64,000 nucleotides of DNA from an uncultured Clostridium sp. (GTDB lineage: Bacteria; Bacillota; Clostridia; TANB77; CAG-508), in the NCBI GenBank assembly GCA_947570695.1, contig CANOVB010000005.1, positions 67,487 through 131,486 on the forward strand, written 5' to 3'. The position numbers and the translations under genes were made by a program. The notes beneath the pieces were generated by a model that was given only the letters and a program-made list of their open reading frames with translations, made no database searches and was not told the origin of the DNA. Of the stretch, positions 8,245 through 32,747 are shown one piece after another (within the stretch, counting starts at the first letter, position 1; each line of letters begins with the position of its first letter).

Positions 8245-8844
8245 ATGAGTGTTGTAATTACGATTGATGACATACGAGCTTATGCAGAAGTTGATTATAT
8301 TATTAATCATATGAATCAAAAATACATAGATAAAGTTCCTAAAAAAATTTTAGCTTTTTTTTCTGAGCTTAAAGATCCAAATTATTATGTAAAAGTTGAC
8401 CCTTATGTGCCACTTCAAAATCAAGGTTTAAAAAGGTATACTTTAGAAATAATTGCATTATTACATTTAAAATATTGGTGTGAAGATGAAGAAAGAAAAA
8501 AAGAATTATATGGTATAATGCTTCGTAATCAAGAAAAATTAGAAGAGCAAATGAGAGATAAATTTAGCGTAGATAAATTATTTGGAAATAATTCATCAGA
8601 TGAAAAGACTGAAGGACAAGAAAAAGAAGATTTTACGAAACCTAGAGTTGTTCAAAGATATAGCCAATATACAGAGCAAAATACTGATATACAAGATTTT
8701 ACTGATCATGTTGAAGAAACTAATATAGCACAATCAGAAAATAATTTAGTTTCAGAAACTAATATTTTAAAAGCAAAAAGTTTTTTTGAAAAAATAAAAG
8801 AAAAGATTTTATCAATTTTTAGCAAAAAAGAAAAAAGTAATTAA
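8245..8844 (+). CDS. hypothetical protein
   Basis: ORF with RBS GTGAGGGG. No recognisable motif. Confidence 0.45.
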   Translation: MSVVITIDDIRAYAEVDYIINHMNQKYIDKVPKKILAFFSELKDPNYYVKVDPYVPLQNQGLKRYTLEIIALLHLKYWCEDEERKKELYGIMLRNQEKLEEQMRDKFSVDKLFGNNSSDEKTEGQEKEDFTKPRVVQRYSQYTEQNTDIQDFTDHVEETNIAQSENNLVSETNILKAKSFFEKIKEKILSIFSKKEKSN

Positions 8845-8879
8845 ATAGTAAAAGAAGAACTTTTTAAAGTTCTTTTTTA

Positions 8880-9070
8880 TATTATAGGAAATTGCTAAAA
8901 AATTCTAAAAGCTTCGCCAAAATTTGAGCACAATTTTACTATGTAAAATTGGTGCAAAAACATTTCTTAGATGTAGCAAATGAAATGAACTACAGATAAG
9001 TTATTGCAGAGAAAAGGAGAGGACATTTGCGTTTGTTTTTTGCAATTATCATAATGTACTCTTTTGTTTT
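8880..9070. repeat. copy of the mosaic dispersed intergenic repeat family, in direct orientation relative to the 6960-7030 copy
   Basis: ACATTTCTTAGATGTAGCAAATGAAATGAACTACAGATAAGTTATTGCAGAGAAAAGGAGAGGACATTTGCG is about 85% identical to 6960-7030. The GCACAATTTTACTATGTAAAATTG block is also present at 13810-13840. Confidence 0.55.
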
Positions 9071-9150
9071 TTAGAAGAATATGCAATTAAATAAAATACA
9101 TTTTAAATATTATTTACTTTTATACTTTTGAGAAAAAATATGATAAAGTA

Positions 9151-9179
9151 TTGACAAACATTAAAAAAAGTAGTAATAT
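9151..9179 (+). promoter_or_regulatory. sigma-A-type promoter of the infC-rpmI-rplT operon
   Basis: TTGACA, 17 bp spacer, TAATAT. Followed by a hairpin-rich leader (9190-9250) that could be the L20 autoregulatory site. Confidence 0.5.
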
Positions 9180-9333
9180 ATTAATGTTTTAAGAAGAAGT
9201 ATCCACTTCTCACCTTATCTTAAGTTAAGAGCATAAGGTTAGAATTTAAATAGTTATGATTAATATAATTATTGGAATTAGTATGTGGATTTGGCTTTTT
9301 AAAATAAGTCAAATTTTTTTTTGGAGGTGTTTT

Positions 9334-9846
9334 ATTATAAAACAAGAATTGCCTATAAATAGACAAATAAGAGAAAAAGAAGTTCAAGTAATTAGTGATA
9401 CAGGAGAAAAATTAGGAGTTCTTTCTTTAGATGCAGCATTAGAGCTTGCAGAAGAAAAGAATTTAGATTTAGTATTAGTTTCACCAAATGCAAGTCCAGT
9501 AGTTTGTAAATTAATGAACTATGGAAAATACAAATTTGAACAAGCTAAGAAAGAAAAAGAGTCTAGGAAGAATCAAAAAACTGTTGAATTAAAAGAAATA
9601 AGGGTTACTCCTAATATAGGAGACCATGACTTTGGATTTAAAAGTAAAAATGCTAGAGCTTTTTTAGAGGCTGGTAATAAAGTAAAATTTACTGTTAGAT
9701 TTAGAGGAAGAGAATTAAATAATGTTAAAGCTGGTGAAACAGTTTTAAATAAATTTGTTGAAGATTTAGCTGATATTTCAACAGTAGAGAAAAAGCCATT
9801 TTTGGAAGGTAAGACAATGTTTGTAATTTTAACAAAAAAAATATAA
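9334..9846 (+). CDS. infC: translation initiation factor IF-3
   Basis: IIKQELPINRQIREKEVQVISDTGEKLGVL and the rest match IF-3. GGAGGTG lies at 9324-9330, so the likely start is non-AUG (ATT/ATA) as in other infC genes. The ATG at 9256 adds an implausible hydrophobic N-terminus. Confidence 0.8.
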   Translation: MIKQELPINRQIREKEVQVISDTGEKLGVLSLDAALELAEEKNLDLVLVSPNASPVVCKLMNYGKYKFEQAKKEKESRKNQKTVELKEIRVTPNIGDHDFGFKSKNARAFLEAGNKVKFTVRFRGRELNNVKAGETVLNKFVEDLADISTVEKKPFLEGKTMFVILTKKI

Positions 9847-9870
9847 AAAAATGTGAAGGGAGATTTCAAA

Positions 9871-10074
9871 ATGCCAAAATTAAAAACAAACAAGGCTGCA
9901 AGTAAGAGATACTCTTATACAGCTAAAGACAAAGTAAAAAGAACAAAAGCTAATAGAAGACATCGTTTAGCTACAAAAACAACAAGACAAAGAAAAACAG
10001 GAAAAATTCAAAATGCATATGCAGATAAAACTGTAGAAGCAGGAATTAAAAGATTATTACCATATGGTAACTAG
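9871..10074 (+). CDS. rpmI: 50S ribosomal protein L35
   Basis: MPKLKTNKAASKRYSYTAKDKVKRTKANRRHR is the canonical L35 sequence. RBS GAAGGGAG. Confidence 0.9.
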   Translation: MPKLKTNKAASKRYSYTAKDKVKRTKANRRHRLATKTTRQRKTGKIQNAYADKTVEAGIKRLLPYGN

Positions 10075-10107
10075 GATTAAATTTAGGATAGAAGGAGTTG
10101 AAAATAA

Positions 10108-10458
10108 ATGGCAAGAGTAAAAACAGCAAGAACAACAAGAGCAAGACATAAAAAAGTATTAAAACAAGCAAAAGGATACTATGGAGCAAAACATTATAGA
10201 TTTAGAAATGCTAAACAAGCAGTTATGAAATCTGGAATGTATGCTTATGTAGGAAGAAAAGATAAAAAATCAGATTTTAGAAAATTATGGATAGTTAGAA
10301 TTAACGCAGCAGCTAGAATGAATGGATTAACATACAGCAAAATGATAGCTGGACTTAAAAAAGCTAATGTAACAATAAATAGAAAAATGTTAGCAGAAAT
10401 AGCTGTTTCAGATAGCAAAGCCTTTGCAGAACTTGCAGAGATTGCTAAAAAAGCATAA
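10108..10458 (+). CDS. rplT: 50S ribosomal protein L20
   Basis: [29 protein letters not shown] is the canonical L20 sequence. Confidence 0.9.
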
Positions 10459-10524
10459 AATTAAAAAGTAAATTTGGTAAAAAAATCAAAGGTTATTAAA
10501 AATAATTTTTGATTTTTTTTAATA

Positions 10525-10553
10525 TTGCAAAAATGCCTAGAGTGATATATAAT
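10525..10553 (+). promoter_or_regulatory. sigma-A-type promoter upstream of leuS
   Basis: TTGCAA, 17 bp spacer, TATAAT. Preceded by an rplT terminator hairpin. No T-box leader: the gap is only ~130 bp. Confidence 0.5.
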
Positions 10554-10589
10554 AAAAAACATCATAATAAAGAAAAGGGAGAGAAAGCT

Positions 10590-13502
10590 ATGGGATATAA
10601 TTTTAAAGAAGTAGAAGAAAAATGGCAAAAAAAATGGTATGAAGAAGGAACTTTTAATGCAAAACAAGATTTTACAAATAAAAAGAAATGGTATGGATTA
10701 ATAGAATTTCCTTATCCATCAGGGCAAGGTCTACATGTAGGACATCCAAGATCTTATACAGCATTAGATATTATTGCAAGAAAGAAAAGAATGGAAGGAT
10801 ATAATGTTTTGTATCCTATTGGTTTTGATGCTTTCGGACTCCCAGCTGAAAATTATGCTATTAAAAATCATGTTCACCCAAAAATAACAACAGAAAATAA
10901 TGTAAATCATTTTAGAGAACAATTAAAATCTTTAGGATTTTCTTTTGATTGGTCAAGAGAAGTAAATACAACAGATCCAGAATATTATAAATGGACACAA
11001 TGGATTTTTATTCAATTATATAAACATGGATTAGCTTATAAAGCTACTATGCCAATTAATTTCTGTACTGGTTGTAAAGTTGGATTAGCAAATGAGGAAG
11101 TTGTTAATGGTGTTTGCGAAAGATGTGGAAGCCCAGTAGTGCAAAAAGAAAAATCACAATGGATGCTTAAAATAACAGAATATGCTCAAAGATTAATTGA
11201 TGATTTAGATGATATAGATTATTTAGATAAAATAAAAGCTCAACAAAAGAATTGGATAGGTAGAAGTGAAGGGGCAGAGGTTAATTTTAAAGTTGCCTCT
11301 GATGAAGATATTATATTTAATAAAGATTCAAAAGTAGAGAAAATTAATTCTAGTGAAAATGATTCTTTATTAATTTATACTACTAGACCAGATACAATAT
11401 TTGGAGCAACATATATGGTTGTAGCTCCAGAACATGAATTAATAAAAAAATATGCAGATAAAATTACTAATTTATCAGAAGTAGAAGAATATAAGAAAAA
11501 AGCTGCTTTAAAATCTGATTTTGAAAGATCAGAGTTAAATAAAGAAAAAACTGGTGTTGAAATTAAAGGACTTAAAGCAATTAATCCATTAACAAATGAA
11601 GCTATTCCAATTTGGATTTCTGATTATGTTTTAATTACTTATGGGACAGGTGCTATTATGGCAGTTCCTGCACATGATGATAGAGATTTTGAATTTGCAA
11701 CTAAATTTAATTTACCTATAAAACAAGTTATTGCACCAGTATTTTATGGAACAGGAGATTCAGAAGTAAGACCAGATAAGAAAAATACAGAAAGAAAAGT
11801 CATTAATGTAGTTGTAAAACATCCAACAGAAAAAAAATTCTTATGTGTAAACAATGATAAATTTGGATTTAAGAATTTTGTTATGGGTGGATTTGAAGGA
11901 GAAGAAACGCCAGTAGAAGCAGCAGCTAGAGAGCTTAGAGAAGAAACTGGTTATACTGATTTTAGAGTGGATTATGTTTTTGATTTTATTTATAAATCAA
12001 AATTTTATGCTGCACATAAAGATGTAAATAGAGATATTACTTGTTATACTGTTGCTGTAACTTTAAATTCATTAAAACAAGAAAAAGTATCAGAAGAAGA
12101 ACAAAAAATTCAATATCCAGTATGGGTAAATGCAGATAAATTAAATGAATATTTAACAACAGAAGAACATATATACACATATTCATTATATGAAAAACCT
12201 CAAGCCTTTACAGATGTTGAAAAAGGAGTTGCTATAAATTCAGATTTCCTAAATGGATTATCTTCAAAAGAAGCTATAAAAAAGGCAACAGATTATATTG
12301 AAGAAAAGAAATTAGGAGAAAGAAAAGTAAATTATAAATTACGTGATTGGGTATTTTCTCGTCAAAGATATTGGGGAGAGCCAATACCAATGGTATATTG
12401 CGAAGATTGTGGCTGGAATCCAATTAAAGAAGAAGAATTACCACTCGTACTTCCAGATATAGAAGATTATGAACCGGGAGAAAATGGAGAGTCACCTTTA
12501 GCAAAACAAACAGAATGGATAAAAACAAAATGTCCATGTTGTGGTAAGGATGCTAAAAGAGAAACAGATACAATGCCACAGTGGGCAGGTTCTTCATGGT
12601 ATTTCCTAAGATATATGGATGCTCATAATAAAGAAGCTTTGGCTTCAAAGGAAGCATTAGAATATTGGTCACCAATAGATTGGTATAATGGAGGAATGGA
12701 GCATACAACACTTCACTTATTATACTCAAGATTTTGGCATAAATTTTTATATGATATTGGTGTTGTTCCAACAAAAGAGCCATATCAAAAACGTACTTCA
12801 CATGGTATGATTTTAGGTGGAAATGGTGAAAAAATGTCTAAATCAAAAGGAAATGTTATAAATCCTGATGATATAGTTAAAGAGTTTGGTGCAGATACTT
12901 TTAGAGTATATGAAATGTTTATGGGACCTTTTGATCAAACAGCACCATGGTCTATGGAATCTATTAGAGGATGTGGCAAATTCTTAGATAGAGTATGGAA
13001 TATGCAAGATATTTTGGTAGACGGAGATGAATATTCTAAAGAGCATGAAAAAATGATGCATAAAGCTATAAAAAAAGTTACTTCAGATATTGAGGAAATG
13101 AAATTTAATACTTCAGTTGCAGAATTTATGAAAATGACAAATGAATTTTATAAGGATAAAAAGATTAATAAGGCAGAATATAAAACATTTTTACAATTAT
13201 TAAATCCATTTGCACCACATATGACAGAAGAATTATTTAATATTCTAGGAGAGACTAAGACAATAAATGAAACACCTTGGCCAAAATATGATGAAGCTAA
13301 AACTATTGATGATGAAATAGAAATACCAGTACAAGTAAATGGAAAGGTAAAAGCTGTTATTACTGCTAATAAAGAAGCTTCTCAAGAAGAAGTTAAGGCT
13401 ATAGTAGATAGTAATGAAATAATTAAAAATGCTTTGGCAGGAAAAAATGTAGTAAAAGAAATTTATGTAAAAGGAAAAATATACAATATAGTAGTTAAAT
13501 AA
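10590..13502 (+). CDS. leuS: leucyl-tRNA synthetase carrying an in-frame ~140-aa Nudix-hydrolase-like insertion
   Basis: HVGHPRSY (HIGH-like) and KMSKSKGN motifs with end-to-end LeuS similarity. Between [21 protein letters not shown] and INSDFLNGL there are ~165 aa where E. coli LeuS has ~25. The insert contains [23 protein letters not shown], which is GX5EX7REUXEEXGU. RBS AAAAGGGAGAG. Confidence 0.9.
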
Positions 13503-13599
13503 TAAAAAAGTGAATTTAAATATTTCAAAATGAACCTAATTGTTAGACGAATCTGTTTAATAAGAAGGGTTCATTTTTTATATAATAAAAGATTGCTTT

Positions 13600-13930
13600 C
13601 AGATTTCTATTATATAAAGCTTTAAGTAAAAGTTGGGCACGATTTTATAAAATAAAATCAGAATATATAGTATTTTTAGATGTAAAAAATGCGCAGATAG
13701 GTTATTGAAGAAAAAAGATGAGGATATTTGCATTTTTACAATTATTATAGTGTCCGCTTTAATCCTATAATAGGAATTTGCTTAGTAATTTCTATTATAG
13801 AATAACTTTTCTAAAATTTGTACACAATTTTACTATGCAAAATTGACACGGAAACAAATACGAGGATATTGGCATTTAGTTTTTACTTTTGCAATTATTA
13901 TAATATTCACTTTTGTTCTTATTTAAATAA
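13600..13930. repeat. cluster of mosaic intergenic repeat modules
   Basis: CTATTATATAAAGC, GCGCAGATAGGTTATTGAAGAAAAAAGATGAGGATATTTGCATTTTTACAATTATTATA and GTACACAATTTTACTATGCAAAATTG...TTTGCAATTATTATAATAT have counterparts at 8880-9070, 6960-7030 and 28620-28880. Confidence 0.5.
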
Positions 13931-14572: not shown

Positions 14573-14703
14573 TTTTTTATCCTCCTACAAAATATATGTT
14601 CGGTAAAACTTTGTTTGTTTTATTTTACAATTTAAAAAATAAAATGTCAATACTTTTTCGAAAAAATGTTCGGTATTTTTAAAAAATAAAGAAACTTTAT
14701 AAA

Positions 14704-14745
14704 ATAAAAAACGCGGGGGCGGAAAACCGCCCCCAACATGGTTTG
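14704..14745 (-). terminator. GC-rich rho-independent terminator of the foreign cassette gene
   Basis: GCGGGGGCGG-AAAA-CCGCCCCC hairpin followed by a T-tract on the minus strand. It sits ~75 nt past the stop of the 14822-16099 gene. This terminator style is shared with the other GC-rich cassettes and absent from host genes. Confidence 0.7.
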
Positions 14746-14821
14746 AAGATTGCAATAGTAAGGGATTTGAAAGTGCTAATTTACCGTAATCCGAAGTGCC
14801 AGCATGTGAACATCACGAACG

Positions 14822-16099
14822 TTACGTGATATTCAATGTTTTGCCGTTGGTCAAGACCACTTGTGTTACGAGTCCCAATTTGTTGGTGTTGAAGCTCGCA
14901 GCGTCGTAACAGAACCGATAGCCGTCCTGAGGGCGGTCATAGATGGAACTGACGAACACCTGATTATCCCTGATATAGCAGAACTGCTTATCAGAGATGA
15001 AGCCGAAAGCGGTGATGTTTGACATGTACCACCCTGTATAGATTCTCGAGGCGATAATCGTCCCATTGAGATACAGGGAGCCGTCTGTAAGCATCAGAGT
15101 GTTGCTTTCAACTGTGCCCTTGGTGTACAAGGTAGCATAGGTGTCCTTTACGACAGCGTAGGTTTCCTTAGCAATCCACTTGTCGTTTGTGGAGGTGAAT
15201 TGCTTCAGGGTGTAAGTGGACTTCTCTGTAACGATTTCCGAGAGGAAACCATTGCTGTCAGTCCTGAAGGTCTTGAACTTGCTGTCCAGGGTAACCTTCT
15301 CCGCAGAGTACCAGTTTCCGAAAGTGAAACGGTACAGAGTACCATTGCTTTCGTAGAGGTACACGTTGTAGCTGGTATCGAATCCCAAGAATTTAGCACC
15401 CTTAAGGGTGTCGGACAGCCGGACGCCGTGAGTTGCATTGAGAACGCTCTTTTCGTCTTTGCTCACAATGATGGAAACCTTCAGGTTGCCAAACTCGTAA
15501 GCGTTACGAACGAACTCGCTCTCAGCGTTGGTGTACATTTCAACACGGCTGGTGTTATTTCCCGGCCTCTGAGGAACAGAAGGCTGAGAAGGCTGGCTGG
15601 GTTGAGACGGCTGGGAAGGCTGAGTCGGCGTACTGGGAACGGTGCTACCAGTAAGAGACTGGTTACCACTTGTGGTTTGCACCGAAGTTGCCAGATCGTC
15701 GCTGTTGTAAAGCAGACATGTTACGCCAGAAGCGTACCAAGTCGATTGCTTACCATCGCTTCCAACGCTAATCAGTGCACCAGCGCTGGTGACGTAGAAG
15801 AAATCGCCATTTGTGGCAAAGCCGTTGTAACGGGAACCGGAGCCAGCAGAGTTGCTCGCAAGAACGGTTCCATTGTTGTTATACACGGTGCTGCCGATGC
15901 TGTAAAAGCTTTTGCTGGGAACGTGGGCGTCCTGCCGGCGGTCATAGGTGTACAGCTTGTACCAGGTGCAGCCCGAGGAGGCGTCATCATAGGTAAAGCC
16001 GTACGGCGCTGTGTCGGCGGTCGTGGCGGCGAAAGCAGTGGGGCAGACCCCAAAGAAGCAGCACACAACCAGGAACAATGCGATCAAAGATTTTTTCAT
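14822..16099 (-). CDS. secreted two-domain protein of unknown function with a (PSQ)n linker; foreign GC-rich composition
   Basis: Start at MKKSLIALFLVVCCFFGVCPTAFAATT (signal peptide) with RBS AGAAAGG. Extended -10 promoter TGCTATAAT with -35 TTGCCT upstream. About 55-58% GC against a ~27% background, with codons such as CTG/GGC/CGC/ACC. Internal 9-bp tandem repeats encode PSQPSQPSQPSQPS. No recognisable homology. Confidence 0.7.
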   Translation of the reverse strand: MKKSLIALFLVVCCFFGVCPTAFAATTADTAPYGFTYDDASSGCTWYKLYTYDRRQDAHVPSKSFYSIGSTVYNNNGTVLASNSAGSGSRYNGFATNGDFFYVTSAGALISVGSDGKQSTWYASGVTCLLYNSDDLATSVQTTSGNQSLTGSTVPSTPTQPSQPSQPSQPSQPSVPQRPGNNTSRVEMYTNAESEFVRNAYEFGNLKVSIIVSKDEKSVLNATHGVRLSDTLKGAKFLGFDTSYNVYLYESNGTLYRFTFGNWYSAEKVTLDSKFKTFRTDSNGFLSEIVTEKSTYTLKQFTSTNDKWIAKETYAVVKDTYATLYTKGTVESNTLMLTDGSLYLNGTIIASRIYTGWYMSNITAFGFISDKQFCYIRDNQVFVSSIYDRPQDGYRFCYDAASFNTNKLGLVTQVVLTNGKTLNIT

Positions 16100-16255
16100 G
16101 TTAGTCAACCTTTCTGTGTTAAAATAAATCTTCAAAACCATGTTAGTTCAACAAATAGCCAAAAGGTCAGCTAAATAAAGTTGAACATCAAATCCCATAA
16201 AATCATTATAGCACAAACTAGTAAAAAAGGCAAATTTATGTAAAGCTATAAAAAG

Positions 16256-16290
16256 CGTGCCCCAGCTTGCACTGGGGCACATTTTTGTGA
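16256..16290. terminator. bidirectional GC-rich hairpin terminator
   Basis: GTGCCCCAG-CTTGCA-CTGGGGCAC with T-runs on both strands. It terminates the 16309-16749 gene. Confidence 0.6.
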
Positions 16291-16308
16291 ATAAGATTCA
16301 CCTAAAAA

Positions 16309-16749
16309 TTAGAAATTCGCGTTTGGATCATCTGATAATTTGTACAGTAAATAGTCTGGGTCAACCTGAACGATATAGTGACTTCCACTTTTGGTGGTGA
16401 AAAGAAACCAGTCGGGTGCAATTTCTTCAAATGACTCTACTAGAGTCGTATTGAGATATTTTACACTGGTATCTGTAACACTAACAATAACGGAAGCTCT
16501 TTTACCCTTTGTAGGGTAACATAAGCAGACTCCAACTGTGGATTTATGTTTTAACTGAAGTTCAGTTATGTTAACAAACCATTCCACAGGGAAAAAATGC
16601 TCTACGTCGTCAATCTTGACAATGTACCGTTCAAAACCACTCATGTATACTGTCCACGAGGCCTCATATGCTTCTCCAACTTCTAAAAGCCTAAAATTGC
16701 ATTTTGGACCGCCGTGGATATCAATAGAACCATTGTACACGAGTTTCAC
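16309..16749 (-). CDS. hypothetical cytoplasmic protein, GTG start, intermediate (~42%) GC, part of the foreign cassette
   Basis: GTG start 6 nt after AGAGGTGA. 146 aa with no recognisable motif. Composition departs from the host. Confidence 0.55.
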   Translation of the reverse strand: MKLVYNGSIDIHGGPKCNFRLLEVGEAYEASWTVYMSGFERYIVKIDDVEHFFPVEWFVNITELQLKHKSTVGVCLCYPTKGKRASVIVSVTDTSVKYLNTTLVESFEEIAPDWFLFTTKSGSHYIVQVDPDYLLYKLSDDPNANF

Positions 16750-16998
16750 AACACATCACCTCTAAATAATAATTTTTGAAATGCTGAGCTTTAGATTTGT
16801 AAATATGAAACTTATCCATAGTATGATAACATGTTTGCATAAAAAGGTCAAACTAGTTTTATTGAGTTTTAATCGTGTGTTTGTATTTTTATGTCACAAT
16901 CTGCATTTAATTGTACAATATTTACAATTAATTTATAAACATAAACTCAATGGTAAGTGTTTTGTATTTTATTAGAAGTTTTAATAACTTGTAAAATA

Positions 16999-18475: not shown

Positions 18476-18581
18476 GGGGGACGTTTGTTAATGGACATTT
18501 TTGTCCGTTAGGGATAGATATTATTTATTTTTTAAACATCTGTAATAAAGAGGACAAAAATGTCCATTAACAAACGTCCCC
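18476..18581. mobile_element. palindromic MITE-like element inserted between spoVAC and spoVAD
   Basis: Perfect 30-bp inverted arms GGGGGACGTTTGTTAATGGACATTTTTGTCC / GGACAAAAATGTCCATTAACAAACGTCCCC around a 46-bp AT-rich loop. A second copy is at 47585-47646. Confidence 0.6.
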
Positions 18582-18590
18582 AAAAGGATA

Positions 18591-19055
18591 TCAAACTAGT
18601 GTTAAACTTTGAGTATTAAATATAATGTAAATTAAACCAACAATAATACTTGAAGAAATACCATACACAAGAACTGGTCCTGCAATAGTAAACATTTTTG
18701 CGCCAACACCCATTACATATCCTTCTGATTTATATTCCATAGCAGGTGAAACAATAGAATTTGCAAATCCAGTTATAGGTACTAAAGAACCAGCACCAGC
18801 AAATTTACCAATTTTGTTAAATATATTTAATCCTGTTAAAAAAGCACTAGCAAATACTAAAAGCATAGATACAATAGTATAAGAATTTGTTTCATCTATT
18901 CCACGGATTTTACACATTTCAAAAATGATTTGACCAATAGCACAAATTAATCCGCCAACCCAAAATGCATTAAAACAATTTTTTAATATTGGAGAATTAG
19001 GCGTTTTTTCATCTACATAGGTTTGATATTCTTCTTTACTTTGAATAGGTTTCAA
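18591..19055 (-). CDS. spoVAC: stage V sporulation protein AC
   Basis: TTG start after AGGAGA. NCFNAFWVGGLICAIGQ is the conserved SpoVAC N-terminus. Confidence 0.85.
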   Translation of the reverse strand: MKPIQSKEEYQTYVDEKTPNSPILKNCFNAFWVGGLICAIGQIIFEMCKIRGIDETNSYTIVSMLLVFASAFLTGLNIFNKIGKFAGAGSLVPITGFANSIVSPAMEYKSEGYVMGVGAKMFTIAGPVLVYGISSSIIVGLIYIIFNTQSLTLV

Positions 19056-19255
19056 AAAATCATCTCCTTTTTATAAATTTTAAACTTATATTTTCCAAAA
19101 AATACATTTGTTATTCATATAAATTTCATAAAATTTTAATAAAATCGTAAAATAGAAAAATATTTTAATATTGAAATAAATCAGAAACTTATATTTTTAC
19201 TAGATTGAAATATTTTCTATCCAAGCTTTCTAAAAAGAAAAAAGGAGATTTAAAT

Positions 19256-21205
19256 ATGGATAAATATTTAAAATTATTAAGTAAAACTTATAAAAATATT
19301 CAAGAAGTTAGTGAAGAAATTATAAATCTTCAAGCAATTTTAAACCTTCCAAAAGGAACAGAATTGTTTTTAAGTGATATTCATGGAGAATATGAAGCAT
19401 TTATACATATTCTTAATAATGGTTCAGGTATAATAAAAAGTAAAATCGAAGATATATATGAAAAAACATTGGATGAAGAAAGTAGAAAAGATTTAGCAAC
19501 TTTAATTTATTATCCAGAAGAAAAACTTAATATGATAAAAAAAGAAAAAAGTAATTTAAATGAATGGTATAAAATTACTTTATATAGATTAATTGAGGTA
19601 ACTAAGGCTGTGAGCTCAAAATATACTCGTTCAAAGGTAAGAAAGGCAATGCCTAAGGGGTTTGATTATATAATAGATGAACTTTTACATCTTCAAGGAG
19701 AAGATGCAAACAAAGAAAAATATTATAAACAGATTGTTGAAAGTATTATTGATTTAAATAGAGCAGATAATTTTATTGTAGCAATTTCTGAATTAATTAA
19801 AAGAATGGCAATAGATCATTTGCATATAGTTGGAGATATTTATGATAGGGGACCAGGAGCCCCGATTATAATGGATAAATTAATGGATTTCCACAGTTTG
19901 GATATAGAATGGGGAAATCATGACATACTTTGGATGGGAGCTGCTACTGGAAATGAAGCATGTATTAGTAATGTTGTAAGAATTTGTAGTAGATATGATA
20001 ATTTAGCAACATTAGAAGAAGGGTATGGAATTAATATTAGACCATTATCAATTTTTGCAACTGAAATGTACAAAGATGATGAATGCAAAGCATTTCTTCC
20101 AAGAAATAAGGAAATGTCTAAATATAGTAATACTGATAAAATTGTTTTATCAAAAATTCAAAAAGCAATATCAGTAATTCAATTTAAAGTAGAAGGACAG
20201 CTTATAAAGAAACATCCAGAATATAAAATGAAAGATAGATTACTACTTGACAAGATTGATTTTGAAAAAGGAGTAGTAAAAATAGATGGTAAAGAATATA
20301 AATTAAATGATATTAATTTTCCTACTATAGATATAAAAAATCCATATAAACTAACAAAAGAAGAAAAAGAAATTATGGAAAGATTAAAAAATTCTTTTAT
20401 GCATAGTGAAAAATTAAATGCTCATGTTAATTTTCTATATTCTAAAGGGCATGTTTATAAAAAATTTAATTCTAATATATTATTTCATGGTTGCATACCA
20501 ATGAAGGAAAATGGAGAATTTGATAAAGTAGAAATTTTAGGCAAATCACTAAAAGGCAAAGAACTATTAGATCATATAGAAAATGTTGCACATAAAGCTT
20601 ATTTTGGAGAGCCAAATGAGGCAAATCAAGAAGCAATAGATTTAATGTGGTATTTTTGGTGCGGTCCAAAATCACCATTATTTGGTAAAGACAAAGCCGC
20701 TACTTTTGAGAGATATTTCCTTGATGAAAAAGAGCTACATAAAGAGCATAAAAATCCTTATTATAGTTTAATAAATAGCGAAGAAATTTGTGATAAAATA
20801 TTAGAAAACTTTGAAACAAGTATTGAAGAGGGACATATAATAAATGGGCATGTACCAGTAAAAGCGAAAGATGGAGAAAGTCCTGTAAAAGCTGGTGGAA
20901 AAATGATAGTTATTGATGGTGGTTTTGCAAAAGCATATCAACCAACCACTGGAATTGCTGGTTATACATTGACTTATAATTCACACGGATTGGTTTTAGC
21001 AATGAATGAACCTTTTGAATCAAAAGCAAAAGCTATAAAAGAAGGATTAGATATTAGAACTCAAACAGTTTTAAAAGAAGATGTTGTAAGTAGAAAAAGT
21101 GTTGCTGATACAGATATAGGAAAAAAATTGCAAGAAGAGATTTCAGATTTAAAACAATTATTAATTGCATATAGAGAAGGTGTTTTAAAAGAAAATTTAC
21201 AATAA
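19256..21205 (+). CDS. fbp: fructose-1,6-bisphosphatase class 3
   Basis: ~650 aa metallophosphoesterase with DIHGEYEAF and GNHD motifs and overall Fbp(YydE) similarity. RBS AAAAAGGAGA before the internal ATG at 19256. Confidence 0.85.
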   Translation: MDKYLKLLSKTYKNIQEVSEEIINLQAILNLPKGTELFLSDIHGEYEAFIHILNNGSGIIKSKIEDIYEKTLDEESRKDLATLIYYPEEKLNMIKKEKSNLNEWYKITLYRLIEVTKAVSSKYTRSKVRKAMPKGFDYIIDELLHLQGEDANKEKYYKQIVESIIDLNRADNFIVAISELIKRMAIDHLHIVGDIYDRGPGAPIIMDKLMDFHSLDIEWGNHDILWMGAATGNEACISNVVRICSRYDNLATLEEGYGINIRPLSIFATEMYKDDECKAFLPRNKEMSKYSNTDKIVLSKIQKAISVIQFKVEGQLIKKHPEYKMKDRLLLDKIDFEKGVVKIDGKEYKLNDINFPTIDIKNPYKLTKEEKEIMERLKNSFMHSEKLNAHVNFLYSKGHVYKKFNSNILFHGCIPMKENGEFDKVEILGKSLKGKELLDHIENVAHKAYFGEPNEANQEAIDLMWYFWCGPKSPLFGKDKAATFERYFLDEKELHKEHKNPYYSLINSEEICDKILENFETSIEEGHIINGHVPVKAKDGESPVKAGGKMIVIDGGFAKAYQPTTGIAGYTLTYNSHGLVLAMNEPFESKAKAIKEGLDIRTQTVLKEDVVSRKSVADTDIGKKLQEEISDLKQLLIAYREGVLKENLQ

Positions 21206-28095: not shown

Positions 28096-28115
28096 TGCTT
28101 AAGTTAGCTTAAAGG

Positions 28116-28144
28116 TTGACATAATTTGAACAGAATGGTATAAT
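28116..28144 (+). promoter_or_regulatory. perfect-consensus sigma-70/sigma-A promoter driving the GC-rich cassette gene
   Basis: TTGACA, exactly 17 bp, TATAAT. Followed ~20 nt later by AGGAGG and the start codon. Confidence 0.6.
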
Positions 28145-28177
28145 AAATATTGACCCAAAAACTTTTAGGAGGAAATT

Positions 28178-28528
28178 GTGATGAACGGTAGCAACAATCG
28201 CACTATGGAGTTGACGGCAATGAACGAGCAAGGCGTTTTCACCCTGATTTTCCGGGATGACGAGCTGCTGAGAGAGTTCGAGAACATGGTTTCCATGTTC
28301 AACCGGAAGCAGGAAGAGCTGATCGTCACCGAGATCGGCGAAAGCAACGGCAGAATCTTTGAGGTCAAGCGCGTCGAGGGACGCCCCACTTGTTGGGAGC
28401 TGGCTCTGCACAAGTATATGAGCCTGTCCAACACCACAAAGACCAACAAGATTACCGGAAAGAAGTACGAGCCTGTACTGTTTACGCCGCTGCGCTTCGT
28501 GAGTCAGACAGAAGAAGCGGCCTGCTAA
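28178..28528 (+). CDS. hypothetical small cytoplasmic protein (116 aa) with foreign GC-rich composition
   Basis: GTG/ATG start after AGGAGG. About 55% GC with CTG/GGC/CGC codons. No recognisable homology. Confidence 0.65.
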   Translation: MMNGSNNRTMELTAMNEQGVFTLIFRDDELLREFENMVSMFNRKQEELIVTEIGESNGRIFEVKRVEGRPTCWELALHKYMSLSNTTKTNKITGKKYEPVLFTPLRFVSQTEEAAC

Positions 28529-28586
28529 TCACAAACCATTGCTGGAGCCAAACAAAAAAGGAGTTTTTAAGGAGATGGCACCAGCA

Positions 28587-28614
28587 GCCCCGCCACTATG
28601 GCGGGGTTTTATTT
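28587..28614 (+). terminator. GC-rich rho-independent terminator of the cassette
   Basis: GCCCCGCC-ACTAT-GGCGGGG followed by TTTTATTT. Confidence 0.7.
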
Positions 28615-28619
28615 ATATA

Positions 28620-28880
28620 ATAGGAAATTCCTATAGAATTCCTATTATATAAAGCCTTCGGCAACATTTCACAGAAAAATTGCTATGCAATTTTTTGCGG
28701 GCGAACAAAGACGAGCCACTTAAATACACTAAAATGTTTGAGAATTTTAAAAGTGGCTCTTTTGTTCTTTAATAGAAAAGTGCTCTGTACTTTTATTAGA
28801 TAAAGCTTTCATCGACTTTATACAGAAAAACGATAAAGCAATTTTTTATAATATAAAGAAGTTGCCAAAATTTACAGGAA
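28620..28880. repeat. cluster of mosaic intergenic repeat modules
   Basis: CTATTATATAAAGCCTTCGGCAACATTTCACAGAAAAATTGC...GCGGGCGAACAAAGACGAG aligns with 57631-57700. A second sub-copy AAAGCTTTCATCGACTTTATACAGAAAAAC follows. Abuts the foreign cassette. Confidence 0.55.
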
Positions 28881-28924
28881 TCCCCAAAATAATACATGAA
28901 ATATAAAAAAATAGAAAAAATATG

Positions 28925-28977
28925 TTGACAATTATTTTTTTTATAACTATAATGAATATATGAACAAATATTCATAT
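28925..28977 (+). promoter_or_regulatory. cadC/arsR promoter with overlapping palindromic operator
   Basis: TTGACA, 17 bp, TATAAT. Then ATATGAA-CAAATA-TTCATAT (7-bp inverted repeat), a typical ArsR/SmtB-family operator. Confidence 0.55.
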
Positions 28978-29035
28978 ATTCACATATGATAAATTAATAA
29001 AAATCAATAGTTCAAAAAGAGGGGGAAATTTTGCA

Positions 29036-31527: not shown

Positions 31528-32037
31528 TTACAGCAGACTGAGAAACTCAGGGGGACAAAACAGAGGTCTGTAGTCCGTGAAGTCCTTAATCAGCTGTTTC
31601 AGGTTTTCTTGACTGATATTATCAGCCACATAGGCAACCAAAGGCTTGAGTAGATGCTTGCCGGGGGCGTTCTGAACAAGAGCGATTCCGTAAACATCTT
31701 TTTTTACAGTCAGAATCACATCTTTGGAGGTCTTTTCCTTGTAATCACGGATTGCTTTCCAAAACTCATCAAAAGAGGTAACATTGGAAGCTTTGGTGCT
31801 GAAGGAAAGAGACCAAGCGATTTTCTGACCGCGGCTTTTCGGCATTTCAGCCCTGATGACAGAGGGAGCTTTGTTCATTCCGTTGTGCGAAATGTAGAAA
31901 CATTCCCCAATGCTTGCTTGGCAGTTAGTGGATGGGTATCCACATAAAGATGTCCGCAACTCATGACCATCAAATGAAGCTCTAACAGATTCAGAGATTG
32001 TGATGGACATAGGAGATTTCCACAAAAAAACCTGCAT
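31528..32037 (-). CDS. hypothetical cytoplasmic protein (169 aa), foreign GC-rich composition
   Basis: RBS GGAAAGG 5 nt before the first ATG. About 48% GC. No recognisable homology. Confidence 0.6.
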   Translation of the reverse strand: MQVFLWKSPMSITISESVRASFDGHELRTSLCGYPSTNCQASIGECFYISHNGMNKAPSVIRAEMPKSRGQKIAWSLSFSTKASNVTSFDEFWKAIRDYKEKTSKDVILTVKKDVYGIALVQNAPGKHLLKPLVAYVADNISQENLKQLIKDFTDYRPLFCPPEFLSLL

Positions 32038-32336: not shown

Positions 32337-32747
32337 ATGAAAAGACGGAGAAAAAAGCCTAGTCCTATGAGTAAAATTTTGGTATTCGTGGCAGGGGTAC
32401 TTTTGGGAGTATCAGCTACACTGAGCTATTTTACATTTTCTGAGTACCAAAATAGTCCCCCTAAACCCGCCAACCCAAGAATGAACATAGTTGCACACGG
32501 CTCATGGATTCATTCTAATGATGGTGGCAGTTATACTATTTCAGCTTTAGGTTATGGAAAACTGTACTCTAATGTCGCGTTCAGTAATGAGGTTTCAGCA
32601 ACTGAGCACCCTGTCGAGGTTCGTAGTGAGGGATATACGATACAAATCGACATTGTAGGATGGTATAAAAAAACAGTAACTATGACTGCTGGAGAGTCAC
32701 TGCTAATAGGTGTACCTGAGGCTTATCTTTATGTAATTGTTGTCTAA
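32337..32747 (+). CDS. hypothetical membrane-anchored/secreted protein (136 aa), foreign GC-rich composition
   Basis: RBS AGGAGG. N-terminus MKRRRKKPSPMSKILVFVAGVLLGVSATLSYF is a signal anchor. About 45% GC. Divergent from the 31528-32037 gene across a 300-bp shared promoter region. Confidence 0.6.
   Translation: MKRRRKKPSPMSKILVFVAGVLLGVSATLSYFTFSEYQNSPPKPANPRMNIVAHGSWIHSNDGGSYTISALGYGKLYSNVAFSNEVSATEHPVEVRSEGYTIQIDIVGWYKKTVTMTAGESLLIGVPEAYLYVIVV

Follow-up and report, generated by a model that had tools for sequence, protein, structure and literature searches.

In Clostridioides difficile, the S-layer (slpA) cassette exemplifies the switching of a surface-protein cassette by homologous recombination. 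In Streptomyces, the bldA/TTA regulon is a small gene set marked by codons that are rare in the genome. Horizontally acquired islets of atypical composition, and their amelioration, are the subject of the Lawrence and Ochman model (as cited in PMC11293555). In a survey of gut-bacterial orphan genes, GC and GC3 followed those of the host genome nearly 1:1 (rho 0.96, PMC11293555). At the RNA level, a 14-bp interaction that joins the 5' with the 3' untranslated region (UTR) of the Bacillus subtilis hbs mRNA modulates RNase Y cleavage (PMC5737220), and long-range RNase III duplexes are found in B. subtilis mRNAs (PMC11780869). Here, we compare these systems with a GC-rich gene in a 64,000-nucleotide stretch of DNA from an uncultured Clostridium species (the window). 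On balance, we favor the view that the gene marks a native hypervariable locus of sporulating, uncultured gut Clostridia with about 27% GC, at which the allele has been swapped and the coding GC is maintained, rather than a GC-rich import.

A GC-rich gene for a secreted two-domain protein

In 200-bp windows, GC content rises to 44-56.5% over positions 14700-16100 and to 36-39% over 16300-16750, between flanks of about 18-30%. The two genes in this region, encoding proteins of 425 and 146 residues, have mean GC contents of 50.9% and 38.8%. A sequence-only reading of the window had singled out 14700-16780 as a compositional anomaly with 55-58% and ~42% GC; sliding-window GC, GC3 and an inverted codon table confirm the GC-richness, although these figures were somewhat high. 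Composition and codon usage are thus atypical for the host, with GC3 values of 0.65 (425-aa gene; 0.64 for a longer, 439-aa version of the reading frame) and 0.36 (146-aa gene) compared to 0.07-0.16 in about 45 other open reading frames of the window, including rplT, the HU gene and infC. The 425-aa gene uses CTG 12 times and has no TTA, ATA, CTA, CCA or CGA codon, whilst a sample of ~2,400 host codons contains no CTG, 145 TTA, 136 ATA and 60 CCA. The frequency of A at third positions (A3) is 0.11, against 0.37-0.57 in host genes. The shift towards C in pyrimidine-ending codons equals the shift towards G in purine-ending codons, at ~63-66% each. Three further GC3 outliers lie in the window, at 28181-28528 (0.75), 31528-32037 (0.48) and 32337-32747 (0.32). 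The window also carries T2SSF/T2SSE genes of a type IV pilus or competence-like kind.

The 425-aa coding sequence (14822-16099, minus strand) begins with MKKS, and its product is predicted to be a Sec-exported protein with a disordered linker between two all-beta domains. A signal peptide, as surmised in the sequence-only reading, is predicted for residues 1-24 (16028-16099, minus strand; MKK, hydrophobic core, AFA|A). Its n-h-c regions and A-x-A site are conserved on inspection in 27 of 27 aligned family sequences, and residues 1-28 have AlphaFold2 (AF2) pLDDT values below 50. The AF2 model (mean pLDDT 77.8) contains two beta domains. The N-terminal domain (residues 33-148; 15656-16003, minus strand) consists of strands only, with pLDDT values of 72-93. 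It is followed by a Pro/Ser/Gln linker (PSQ x4; 15578-15629, minus strand), disordered in the model, which is indeed encoded by 9-bp tandem repeats (5.2 copies, 15578-15624) and which differs in length and sequence among family members. The C-terminal all-beta domain (residues 185-423; 14831-15547, minus strand), delineated from the alignment and the model, is the best-conserved part of the protein and bears a weak likeness to beta-propeller blades.

This gene belongs to a small, unnamed, clade-restricted family of secreted, all-beta proteins. We found at least 120 homologs with 32-99% identity, mostly at one locus; the 122 collected are about 400-420 residues long and lack Pfam domains. A profile HMM search recovered just 66 clusters (50% identity) among 1.84 billion representatives. 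The earlier statement that no family could be recognized is therefore correct as to named families, but the gene has many relatives in the same place. None of the proteins from the five GC-rich genes of the window matched Pfam, PHROGs, NCBIfam or PADLOC, the last giving zero anti-phage defense matches for all five. Searches of Pfam and NCBIfam at E values up to 1 gave no wall-anchoring module (CWB2, SLH or LPXTG), and these domains were also absent from 10 distant family members. The family protein is under purifying selection (dN/dS 0.12-0.15), yet it evolves far faster than its neighbors. We consider it most likely to be an abundant extracellular or surface binding protein that would experience diversifying pressure from host or phage.

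Allele classes and the variable segment

The gene order spoVA-X-ygjP-leuS, in which X is the family gene, is present at most of about 25 loci examined, recurring in L016, L018, L119 and most of L022-L033. Every relative checked at the locus has a homolog of the 425-aa gene in this slot. Flanks are 25-29% GC at all ~25 loci, family gene GC3 ranges from 0.23 to 0.65, and the family gene ranks first or close to first among the GC3 outliers at nearly all loci checked. The sequence-only reading had asked for comparison with relatives, where the same genes at the same loci with annotated functions would have spoken against foreignness; homologs do occupy the locus, without an annotated function, so that this objection applies in part.

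Paralog or allele classes can be distinguished within the family, and one of them, type A, is GC-rich in all AT-rich genomes in which it occurs. In eight AT-rich lineages, type A GC3 is 0.65, 0.63, 0.55, 0.52, 0.50, 0.43, 0.35 and 0.33 (L119, 0.63; L022, 0.52; L120, 0.33), and TTA and ATA are absent or nearly so in the six type A alleles tallied. GC3 also differs between tandem paralogs of a single genome (0.43 in L018a versus 0.28 in L018b). Type A lies at the identical locus in every lineage carrying it. The type A and species trees agree within clade 2, both having the groupings (L018,L024) and (L022,L023).

The window species departs from this agreement. By its flanks it groups with L030 and L031, with 92.7% amino acid identity over four genes (96% for spoVAD) and 84-90% nucleotide identity. 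This places it in a clade with AT-richer type C alleles, but its own allele is type A. The family gene of L030/L031 has a GC3 of 0.23 and is only 41-42% identical to that of the window. Bootstrap support was 95% for type A including the window sequence, 100% for the window with L016 and 95% for type C without the window; the grouping of the window with L030/L031 received 0%. In blastn comparisons, nucleotide homology to these nearest species stops at 16995 and resumes at 14702, delimiting a variable segment (14703-16994) that holds the type A gene and the 146-aa gene. We propose that a native allele was swapped for type A by homologous recombination in the conserved flanks, with break points at 14702 and 16995, and that the unrelated 146-aa gene came to adjoin the incoming allele. 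The segment may thus be called foreign, as the sequence-only reading had it, in the narrow sense that it is unlike the nearest relatives and its allele groups with distant lineages; a GC-rich donor, in contrast, is not indicated by the 25-29% GC flanks.

In these respects, the locus resembles the slpA cassette: a secreted-protein gene with a predicted Sec signal peptide sits at a fixed position, with deeply divergent alleles between conserved flanks, conflict between gene tree and species tree, and exchange without mobility genes. It differs in that the protein has no CWB2, SLH or other wall anchor and its surface location is only predicted, that its alleles are GC-richer than the genome instead of similar or AT-richer, and that some species have tandem paralogs.

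The 146-aa coding sequence (16309-16749, minus strand) has a GTG start and no signal peptide. It is absent from the loci of relatives and has no homolog outside the species. The other GC-rich reading frames encode a 115-residue protein (28181-28528, plus strand), preceded by a TTGACA-17-TATAAT consensus promoter and AGGAGG, a 169-residue protein (31528-32037, minus strand; 160 residues in an alternative call) and a 136-residue protein whose N-terminus carries a membrane anchor or signal sequence (32337-32747, plus strand). The 115-aa gene sits in a variable slot downstream of a ROK kinase gene, where different species have different GC-elevated orphans. All four small genes are species-specific orphans. 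Like the surveyed gut orphans (PMC11293555), they are short, lack annotation, are confined to a species and occur in every strain sampled; they differ from those in a GC3 of 0.32-0.75 against a host value of about 0.10.

The transcription unit and its predicted UTR pairing

Syntenic members of the family appear to share one transcription unit, composed of a TG-extended -10 promoter, a covarying leader hairpin, two UTR complementarities, a strong terminator and a good Shine-Dalgarno sequence. Pattern searches placed a sigma-A-type promoter of the 425-aa gene (TTGCCT-17-TATAAT with a TG extension) at 16205-16233 on the minus strand, and TG-n-TATAAT is invariant in 16 of 16 aligned upstream regions. 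The predicted 5' leader contains a two-part hairpin (16142-16189, minus strand), with an outer stem GUUCAAC/GUUGAAC, a U-rich internal loop and an inner stem of 7 bp. Both stems covary between lineages, with compensatory changes in six of the seven pairs of the inner stem, and all 16 family leaders took the same shape when folded independently. The matches of a covariance model of the leader all lay upstream of family genes, and 6 of the matching sequences were not part of the seed. Rfam gave no leader family match, just two sub-threshold ones, both over the terminator region. The terminator consists of a 9-bp stem, in which 8 pairs are G-C, and a T-run after it (14714-14735, minus strand). 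For the 146-aa gene, a promoter-like site (TTGACC-17-TATCAT with a TG extension) was matched at 16823-16851 and a terminator hairpin at 16256-16281 (both on the minus strand, the terminator pattern matching on both strands). Both genes are therefore self-contained units with TG-extended promoters and GC hairpin terminators, in agreement with the sequence-only reading.

The UTRs of the 425-aa gene contain two predicted long-range helices, with all four strands read on the minus strand. In H1, UAUGGGAUUUG (16189-16199), at or near the predicted mRNA 5' end, is complementary to CAAAUCCC in the 3'UTR (14762-14769). In H2, CUAACAUGGUUUUGAAGAUU (16127-16146), immediately 3' of the leader hairpin, is complementary to AAUCUUCAAACCAUGUUGG (14733-14751), which lies in the 3'UTR and abuts the terminator. 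H1 crosses H2, giving a pseudoknot-like topology. In 19 of 19 family genes, the best helix between 5'UTR and 3'UTR lies at an equal relative position, with 12-24 aligned pairs. Cognate UTRs scored higher than non-cognate ones (35.3 versus 25.3, p = 4e-7). Non-Watson-Crick pairs comprise 15 G.U against 2 A.C (p = 0.0012), which points to pairing of the sense-strand RNA. Close relatives show compensatory changes in the helix, and outgroup helices have wholly different sequences. A conserved 5'UTR-3'UTR pairing is thus predicted, with support from evolutionary covariation.

As in hbs, a monocistronic Firmicute mRNA with a structured leader and a strong Shine-Dalgarno sequence would have its 5' leader tied to its 3'UTR by a helix of 12-21 bp. 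By analogy with hbs (PMC5737220) and the RNase III duplexes (PMC11780869), the arrangement is compatible with control of RNase access. Sequence similarity to hbs is nil. Unlike hbs, the family has two crossing helices and a separate leader hairpin, and the predicted architecture is kept family-wide with full covariation even where UTR sequences are unrelated.

Origin of the GC-richness

Several observations suggest that type A is kept GC-rich within AT-rich hosts. Silent sites of the flanking genes are randomized between species (G/C-state correlation 0.07-0.19), and the type A genes of the window and L016 are saturated (pS 0.79), yet both are GC3-rich. Neutral decay from a shared clade 2 ancestor would need an ancestral GC3 of ~0.9 to more than 1. 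Non-coding DNA of the cassette is 0.23-0.33 GC, compared to a host intergenic mean of 0.22 +/- 0.06, and types B and C have a promoter and leader homologous to the AT-rich ones of the window gene. With silent sites saturated and non-coding DNA AT-rich, we therefore interpret the GC as maintained and not as the relic of a donor, an argument that presupposes vertical descent of type A within clade 2. The GC enrichment would be restricted to coding sequence and actively maintained against strong AT mutation pressure. Most speculatively, the force would be selection on the transcript, for an mRNA that is highly expressed and long-lived, with an A/U-poor body and protected ends. High expression alone does not raise GC3 here, as the ribosomal-protein, HU and IF3 genes of the window have ordinary values (0.09-0.13). 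The wide spread of type A GC3 (0.33-0.65) speaks against maintenance, since constant selection does not predict it. Furthermore, GC1, GC2 and amino acid composition move with GC3 (FYMINK rho -0.92; lysine is halved in type A), which fits general GC pressure at least as well as silent-site selection. Polarization of substitutions with an outgroup gave no usable direction for the GC change, and type A shows as many G/C-to-A/T differences in total as the flank rates predict.

Recent, possibly repeated horizontal import from unsampled GC-richer bacteria or mobile elements is a possible, though unlikely, origin. Type A and the orphans would have acquired their codon usage in hosts of 40-55% GC. Transformation and homology-assisted recombination would then have brought them at various times into several AT-rich lineages, leaving alleles at different stages of decay. 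The wide GC3 range is as expected for imports of unequal age, the parallel shift of GC1, GC2 and amino acids is as expected after long GC pressure, and the number of G/C-to-A/T differences matches neutral flank rates. The phylogenetically misplaced window allele within a swapped segment, the four orphans without any relatives, the ROK slot with its differing GC-elevated occupants and the type IV pilus or competence-like genes also favor import. However, no GC-rich carrier of the family was found among ~25 contexts, 185,579 GTDB species, 5.8 billion proteins and 1.84 billion representatives. In the swapped unit, the promoter, leader and other non-coding DNA are AT-rich and share homology with their counterparts in AT-rich alleles, and type A follows the species tree within clade 2 and keeps one locus in every lineage carrying it. 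The hallmarks of an island are likewise incomplete. The locus is empty in sisters for the 146-aa gene alone, and a donor lineage of matching composition is missing, the homologous loci all having 25-29% GC flanks. As the sequence-only reading had noted, mobility genes and scars are absent: there is no tRNA gene in the window, there is no Pfam match to an integrase or transposase in gene tables covering +/-10 kb, and none of the listed repeat families is a flanking direct repeat. The locus shares with ameliorating islets the host-deviant GC and codon usage, the self-contained genes and, after ROK, a slot variably occupied between species. It differs from them in deviating towards higher GC in an extremely AT-rich genome, with no donor, integrase, tRNA or repeat scar, and the deviation of the 425-aa family persists over saturated divergence in coding sequence only.

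A bolder form of maintenance, which we regard as rather improbable, is a class of recoded transcripts in extremely AT-rich bacteria, whose mRNA bodies selection would keep GC-rich and nearly without A-ending codons, in combination with a closed-loop architecture made up of the pairing between 5' end and 3'UTR, the leader hairpin and the strong terminator. If true, this would mean an exceptionally stable mRNA or translation by a distinct tRNA set, and a new way to set one gene apart from a genome with GC3 of ~0.10; the GC-rich orphans of the window would be further members.

We see only a small chance that GC-biased gene conversion at a recombination hot spot, without selection on product or mRNA, raised the GC. 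Frequent exchange between alleles and lineages would then have coupled with a G/C preference in heteroduplex repair. Allele replacement did occur at the locus, and strains are clonal except for imported patches, indicating that recombination occurs in the window's species. All three codon positions are GC-shifted, and a selection or selection-like process holds bacterial GC content above mutational equilibrium (PMC2936529), which we count for gene conversion. Against this, ygjP and spoVAEB, inside any plausible tract, have an ordinary GC3 of 0.12, UTRs and spacers are still AT-rich, and type B, the tandem partner of type A in one genome and at one locus, falls well below it in GC.

The chance is slim that codon-partitioned translational control accounts for the data, with the five GC-rich genes forming one regulon read by G34/C34 tRNAs when U34 tRNAs are depleted, unmodified or cleaved, for instance in stress, sporulation or phage attack. 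Such control would explain the avoidance of A-ending codons (A3 0.11 versus 0.37-0.57), the near-absence of TTA and ATA from the six tallied type A alleles and the presence within 18 kb of five such genes, each with its own strong promoter. The equal shifts towards C and G (~63-66%), however, resemble general GC pressure and not tRNA-specific selection, amino acid composition is also shifted, and the orphans have no leader, promoter motif or distribution in common with the family gene. The likeness to the bldA/TTA regulon, a small gene set held apart from the bulk by using or avoiding genome-rare codons, is a resemblance only. The polarity is opposite, the shift involves the whole gene instead of a single codon, and no dedicated tRNA is known.

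That the five genes form one dispersed functional system, as the sequence-only reading had envisaged and as their proximity and common atypical composition might suggest, is highly improbable. More than 20 other loci carry the family gene but none of the four small genes, which gave no tblastn match in any relative's locus and have no homologs beyond the species. The idea of a conserved two-gene cassette fails likewise, with relatives carrying the family gene without the 146-aa gene. The four orphans and the family gene share no regulatory element, neither leader nor promoter motif, nor a phylogenetic distribution, and no PADLOC, Pfam, PHROGs or NCBIfam model was matched.

The stretch itself is authentic. 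The window is 100% identical to ENA contig L001, and about 13 further assemblies from ENA and JGI carry the region at 98.6-100% identity; for about ten contigs besides L001, a JGI sample included, the identity is 98.6-99.96%. Its exact proteins occur in 117 and 182 indexed blocks of public assemblies. An assembly chimera, contaminant or engineered insert, suggested by the compositional contrast alone, can be dismissed, as at least 20 contigs, assembled independently in several ENA studies and from the JGI sample, have the same junctions, with one single context in every contig read, orthologs occupy the same locus in other species, and relatives have a homologous promoter and leader.

Returning to a native locus with maintained coding GC, the gene illustrates that a foreign-looking island can be a long-term resident, which composition alone would misclassify as a recent import or contaminant. 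If its GC is maintained, it would be a clean natural case of gene-specific composition pressure against one of the strongest known AT biases. Paralogs in the same genome and locus provide built-in controls, opening the old debate on selection, biased conversion and mutation in bacterial GC content to a direct test. The promoter, leader hairpin and predicted 5'/3'-UTR pairing constitute an undescribed cis-regulatory RNA architecture with strong covariation, a candidate for a general mRNA-protection device in Firmicutes. The protein itself would be a fast-evolving, recombination-swapped secreted antigen of uncultured Clostridia from the mouse, rabbit and human gut, and may matter for their interactions with host or phage.

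Composition and authenticity of the GC-rich stretch

The compositional anomaly in the window is real. In 200-bp windows, GC content is 44-56.5% over 14700-16100 and 36-39% over 16300-16750, compared to ~18-30% in the flanks; the contrast described in the sequence-only reading is genuine, although its percentages (55-58% and ~42%) were slightly too high. The stretch encodes, on the minus strand, a secreted protein of 425 aa (14822-16099, starting MKKS, with GAAAGG ahead of the start) and an ORF of 146 aa with a GTG start (16309-16749). The main seat of the anomaly is the third codon position, with GC3 values of 0.65 and 0.36, respectively, relative to 0.07-0.16 in ~45 other window ORFs, which include rplT, HU and infC. 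The 425-aa gene contains 12 CTG codons and no TTA, ATA or CCA, whereas a host sample of ~2,400 codons contains no CTG, 145 TTA, 136 ATA and 60 CCA, so that codon choice is indeed opposite to that of the host. The 9-bp repeat encoding the PSQ linker, two TG-extended -10 promoters and two GC hairpin terminators were also recovered, and the window is free of tRNA genes. Three more GC3 outliers, at 28181-28528 (0.75), 31528-32037 (0.48) and 32337-32747 (0.32), match the further GC-rich genes that had been placed at ~28 and ~31-32 kb. A 324-aa ORF lies antisense to the 425-aa gene (15200-16174, plus strand); we do not count it as a gene, since the scarcity of stop codons in GC-rich sequence probably accounts for it. 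Thus, the anatomy first read from the sequence was correct and its interpretation right only in part.

The exact 425-aa protein is indexed in 117 blocks of public assemblies, and the exact 146-aa protein in 182. Every contig that we read has the gene order spoVAC-spoVAD-spoVAEB-146-425-ygjP-leuS. ENA contig ERZ14864678 NODE_73 matches the window at 100% identity, and around ten other assemblies, including one JGI sample, do so at 98.6-99.96%, with both cassette junctions unchanged throughout. Three other small GC-rich ORFs of the window (115, 169/160 and 136 aa) are likewise present in all contigs read for this species. This constancy of gene order and junctions across public assemblies rules out an engineered, contaminant or chimeric insert. 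Strains of the species do not differ over most of a 22-kb stretch; their differences (17-89 mismatches per kb) fall in two discrete blocks, 8500-11500 and 18500-19500, apparently brought in by recombination against a background that is clonal elsewhere. SNP density was dropped as a sign of a recent sweep or acquisition; it is uninformative because the strains are clonal outside the imported patches (8.5-11.5 and 18.5-19.5 kb).

The small ORFs have narrow distributions. The 146-aa gene is missing at every other locus and has no homologue beyond the species, which removes the idea of a conserved two-gene cassette with the 425-aa gene. The 115-aa ORF has three database matches, namely one protein of 72% identity on short contigs and two shorter ones at 94% and 100%, and matches to the 169/160- and 136-aa ORFs are confined to small clusters of near-identical sequences. 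No tblastn matches to these three ORFs were found at the loci of relatives. Comparison of empty sites was limited to the slot after the ROK kinase gene (28096-29035 in the window), as a metagenome scan anchored on TrpRS for empty 28 kb and 31-32 kb sites returned only distant relatives (≤79% identity) without synteny. The cargo of this slot differs by species: an unrelated 145-aa ORF in relative L029 (4130-4567, minus strand, GC3 0.41), a 103-aa ORF in L025 (3160-3471, minus strand, GC3 0.25) and nothing in L032 (1111-1148). The slot thus looks like a second variable islet with unrelated small GC-elevated orphans. Typical gut orphan genes have a GC content that tracks the host genome (PMC11293555), unlike the GC-rich orphans of the window. 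A palindromic intergenic repeat of ~60 nt (TATAATAGGAA...TTCCTATTATA followed by AAAGC; 13574-13634, 13759-13819 and 28609-28669) recurs at the edges of variable slots; in L030 and L029, similar sequences follow the family gene. Its core 13-mer, allowing up to two mismatches, occurs 32 times, compared with 15.5 +/- 3.6 in shuffled sequences.

A native protein family and its allele classes

The 425-aa gene belongs to a small family that is native here and keeps a fixed chromosomal position. Among 5.8 billion proteins searched, 122 homologues had 32-99% identity, most of them ~400-420 aa long; only one has a recorded Pfam domain (PF00664), and the few that are named are all labelled 'hypothetical protein'. 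Only 66 clusters emerged when 1.84 billion cluster representatives were searched with a profile. Pfam scans found no known domains in distant members, and no function could be assigned by homology from Pfam, PHROGs, NCBIfam, PADLOC or PDB sequence profiles. The earlier statement that the protein belongs to no recognized family therefore holds for annotated function and known domains, but not for the existence of homologues, most of which occupy one locus. The family shares a signal peptide with an A-x-A site, an N-terminal beta domain (residues 33-148 in the 425-aa protein), a disordered Pro/Ser/Thr-rich linker of variable length and a better conserved C-terminal beta domain (residues 185-423).

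Family loci, collected from GTDB species and assemblies, derive from gut MAGs of uncultured Clostridia, with mouse, rabbit and human as hosts. Most recovered loci have the gene between the spoVA operon and ygjP/leuS, the flanks have 25-29% GC at all of them, and the family gene is the highest or near-highest GC3 outlier within its 20-kb neighbourhood at nearly all loci checked. In L120 (1-4557), the gene instead adjoins two very large SpaA/Flg_new-domain surface proteins, a neighbourhood that fits a surface-associated role.

The flanking genes show changes of their own. Window leuS (10590-13502, plus strand) encodes a LeuRS with a NUDIX hydrolase domain (residues 407-525, E = 1e-9; ~11808-12164) inserted just past the editing domain. 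This insertion appears lineage-specific, since nucleotide homology to every relative checked is broken from 11732 to ~12200 and LeuRS is 811-865 aa in relatives compared to 970 aa in the window. The 139-bp spoVAC-spoVAD gap is occupied by a perfect 30-bp inverted repeat (GGGGACGTTTGTTAATGGACATTTTTGTCC and its complement, 45-nt spacer, 18477-18581). The two genes abut in several relatives, such as L018, which suggests that the element is a MITE-like insertion or a large hairpin; strain L003 has a divergent patch at this site. On the minus strand of the ygjP-leuS gap (L022 12136-13258, L023 12369-13259, L018 14260-15403), some relatives contain a gene for a 296-aa radical-SAM enzyme. A 79-aa ORF lies just downstream in L018, and its 72-aa counterpart in L022 has repeated CGGS motifs; the enzyme gene and small ORF look like a RiPP-type pair, which is absent from the window.

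The family tree resolves type A, type B, type C and a non-syntenic outgroup (L020 and L034, GC3 0.29-0.31). Type A comprises the GC-rich alleles of the window (0.65), L119 (0.63), L016 (0.55), L022 (0.52) and L023 (0.50), as well as those of L018 and L026 (0.43), L024 (0.35) and L120 (0.33). Its sister, type B (L018, L024, L025/L121), has GC3 of 0.25-0.28, and type C (L027-L033) 0.23-0.32. Type B follows directly downstream of type A in L018 (10001-12713), L024 (9616-12333) and L026 (9974-12686), where promoter, leader hairpin and 3'UTR motifs are duplicated, one set per gene. Within one genome, GC3 is 0.43 in the type A copy versus 0.28 in type B (L018), or 0.35 versus 0.25 (L024).

A tree of four flanking genes puts the window in the type C-bearing clade, together with L030/L031 and L033, whereas types A and B are those of a second clade and the deep lineage L016 combined. 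In the family tree, a type A group that includes the window has 95% bootstrap support, the window with L016 100%, a type C group that excludes the window 95%, and the window with L030/L031 0%. The flanks are 84-90% identical to L030/L031 at the nucleotide level; this homology ends at 16995 (the end of spoVAEB) and restarts at 14702, just beyond the terminator. The simplest reading is that a native type C allele was swapped for a type A allele, probably by recombination in the conserved flanks. The donor is unsampled, since the nearest allele (L016) is only 64% identical.

Promoter, leader hairpin and complementary UTRs

The family gene is framed by an expression module (16100-16233 and 14714-14821, minus strand), also found around the family gene in L016, L018, L022-L034, L119 and L120. 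TG-n-TATAAT is invariant in all 16 aligned upstream regions, and the 14 from syntenic loci share a leader start, UAUGGGAUUU or UAUAGGGAU. All 16 leaders, folded singly, give one common shape, a two-part hairpin. Its inner stem has compensatory changes at 6 of 7 pairs, and its outer stem, GUUCAAC/GUUGAAC, becomes AGCUUAAU/AUUAAGCU, GUUUACCA/UGGUAAAC or GCUCACCA/UGGUAGAGC among lineages. A covariance model built from 7 leaders and scanned over 344 kb matched only directly upstream of family genes, including 6 non-seed sequences, and the rest of the window and loci gave no significant match. Rfam contained no match for the leader or module. The model also found no hairpin upstream of the four orphans, and there is therefore no shared regulon signal. 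Without this hairpin or any functional link found between the small ORFs and the family gene, the suggested five-gene dispersed system falls away.

The leader is complementary to the 3'UTR in two places. H1 would pair the extreme 5' end (16189-16199) with 14762-14769, and H2 would pair 16127-16146, just past the hairpin, with 14733-14751, abutting the terminator; the predicted helices cross. Under a score that penalizes all non-Watson-Crick pairs alike, the best 5'UTR/3'UTR helix coincides with H2 in every one of the 19 genes, and its sequence varies widely across lineages, for example UAUGCUUUUGGGAUUUAUCAU/AUGAUGAAUCCUAAGAGCAUA in L030, AGAUGGAUUGGA/UCCAAUCCAUCU in the type A copy of L018 and GCUCGAGAAGUGCAC/GUGCACUUCUCGGGC in the outgroup. 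Judged by this covariation, the putative H1 and H2 helices are conserved in all 19 family genes. Cognate UTR pairs score higher than non-cognate pairs (35.3 versus 25.3, p = 4e-7). With the equal-penalty score, internal non-Watson-Crick pairs comprise 15 G.U and 2 A.C (p = 0.0012), an excess that argues for sense-RNA pairing over DNA inverted repeats; under a permissive score, whose alignments extended into random sequence, the counts were 63 and 52 (not significant). RNAduplex energies of whole UTRs were rejected in favour of alignment-type helix scoring, as their z-scores were confounded by GC-rich terminators and automatic trimming. The nearest precedent is the B. subtilis hbs mRNA, in which a 14-bp 5'/3'-UTR interaction modulates RNase Y cleavage (PMC5737220). 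In the same organism, RNase III commonly acts on long-range duplexes formed within one RNA (PMC11780869).

Probable maintenance of the GC excess and possible working of the locus

We consider it fairly probable that the GC of type A is maintained, which is better supported than a relic. G/C states at four-fold-type sites of the flanking genes are essentially uncorrelated between species (0.07-0.19), and over these splits each lineage would therefore retain no more than 0.26-0.43 of a neutral GC excess. Both sub-lineages of the second clade carry type A, with a topology that agrees with the species tree, so that the present GC3 of 0.43-0.52 would need an ancestral GC3 of ~0.9 to >1. Silent sites have reached saturation between the alleles of the window and L016 (pS 0.79), and both are nonetheless GC3-rich. 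The tandem type A and type B copies of a single genome also diverge in GC3 (0.43 versus 0.28). Non-coding DNA within the cassettes has 0.23-0.33 GC, compared with a host intergenic mean of 0.22 +/- 0.06, and the promoter and leader, themselves AT-rich, have homologues in front of AT-richer alleles. Several observations count against maintenance or are left unexplained by it: GC3 is labile inside type A (0.33 in L120 versus 0.63 in L119), and GC1, GC2 and amino-acid composition shift together with GC3, Lys going from 11-14% to 5-8%. The shift towards C in pyrimidine-ending codons equals that towards G in purine-ending codons (~63-66% each), which points to general GC pressure over tRNA matching.

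A hidden reservoir of GC-richer carriers as the source of type A GC is unlikely; no GC-rich carrier of the family gene was found among the loci, species and protein databases searched. Expression level as the sole cause is ruled out, since the ribosomal-protein gene rplT and the HU and infC genes show no GC3 shift (0.09-0.13). The total of G/C-to-A/T differences equals that expected from flank rates, and this count therefore cannot tell decay from equilibrium turnover. Polarization of silent substitutions was discarded because its outcome followed the GC3 of whichever outgroup was chosen, from which we judged the outgroups to be saturated.

The 425-aa gene is a monocistronic unit that combines a strong promoter and terminator with a structured leader and complementary ends, and this secreted-protein unit sits at a locus with allele exchange. 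The paired ends and hairpin may shield the mRNA from attack that needs free 5' or 3' ends. Tentatively, selection for a stable or high-yielding transcript could keep the coding body of type A GC-rich and A-poor. A similarly tentative view of the product is that of a binding protein, abundant on the surface or outside the cell and subject to diversifying pressure. The locus combines known kinds, a secreted-protein locus swapped by recombination and an mRNA with interacting UTRs. The gene-specific GC enrichment, which is apparently maintained, deserves follow-up.
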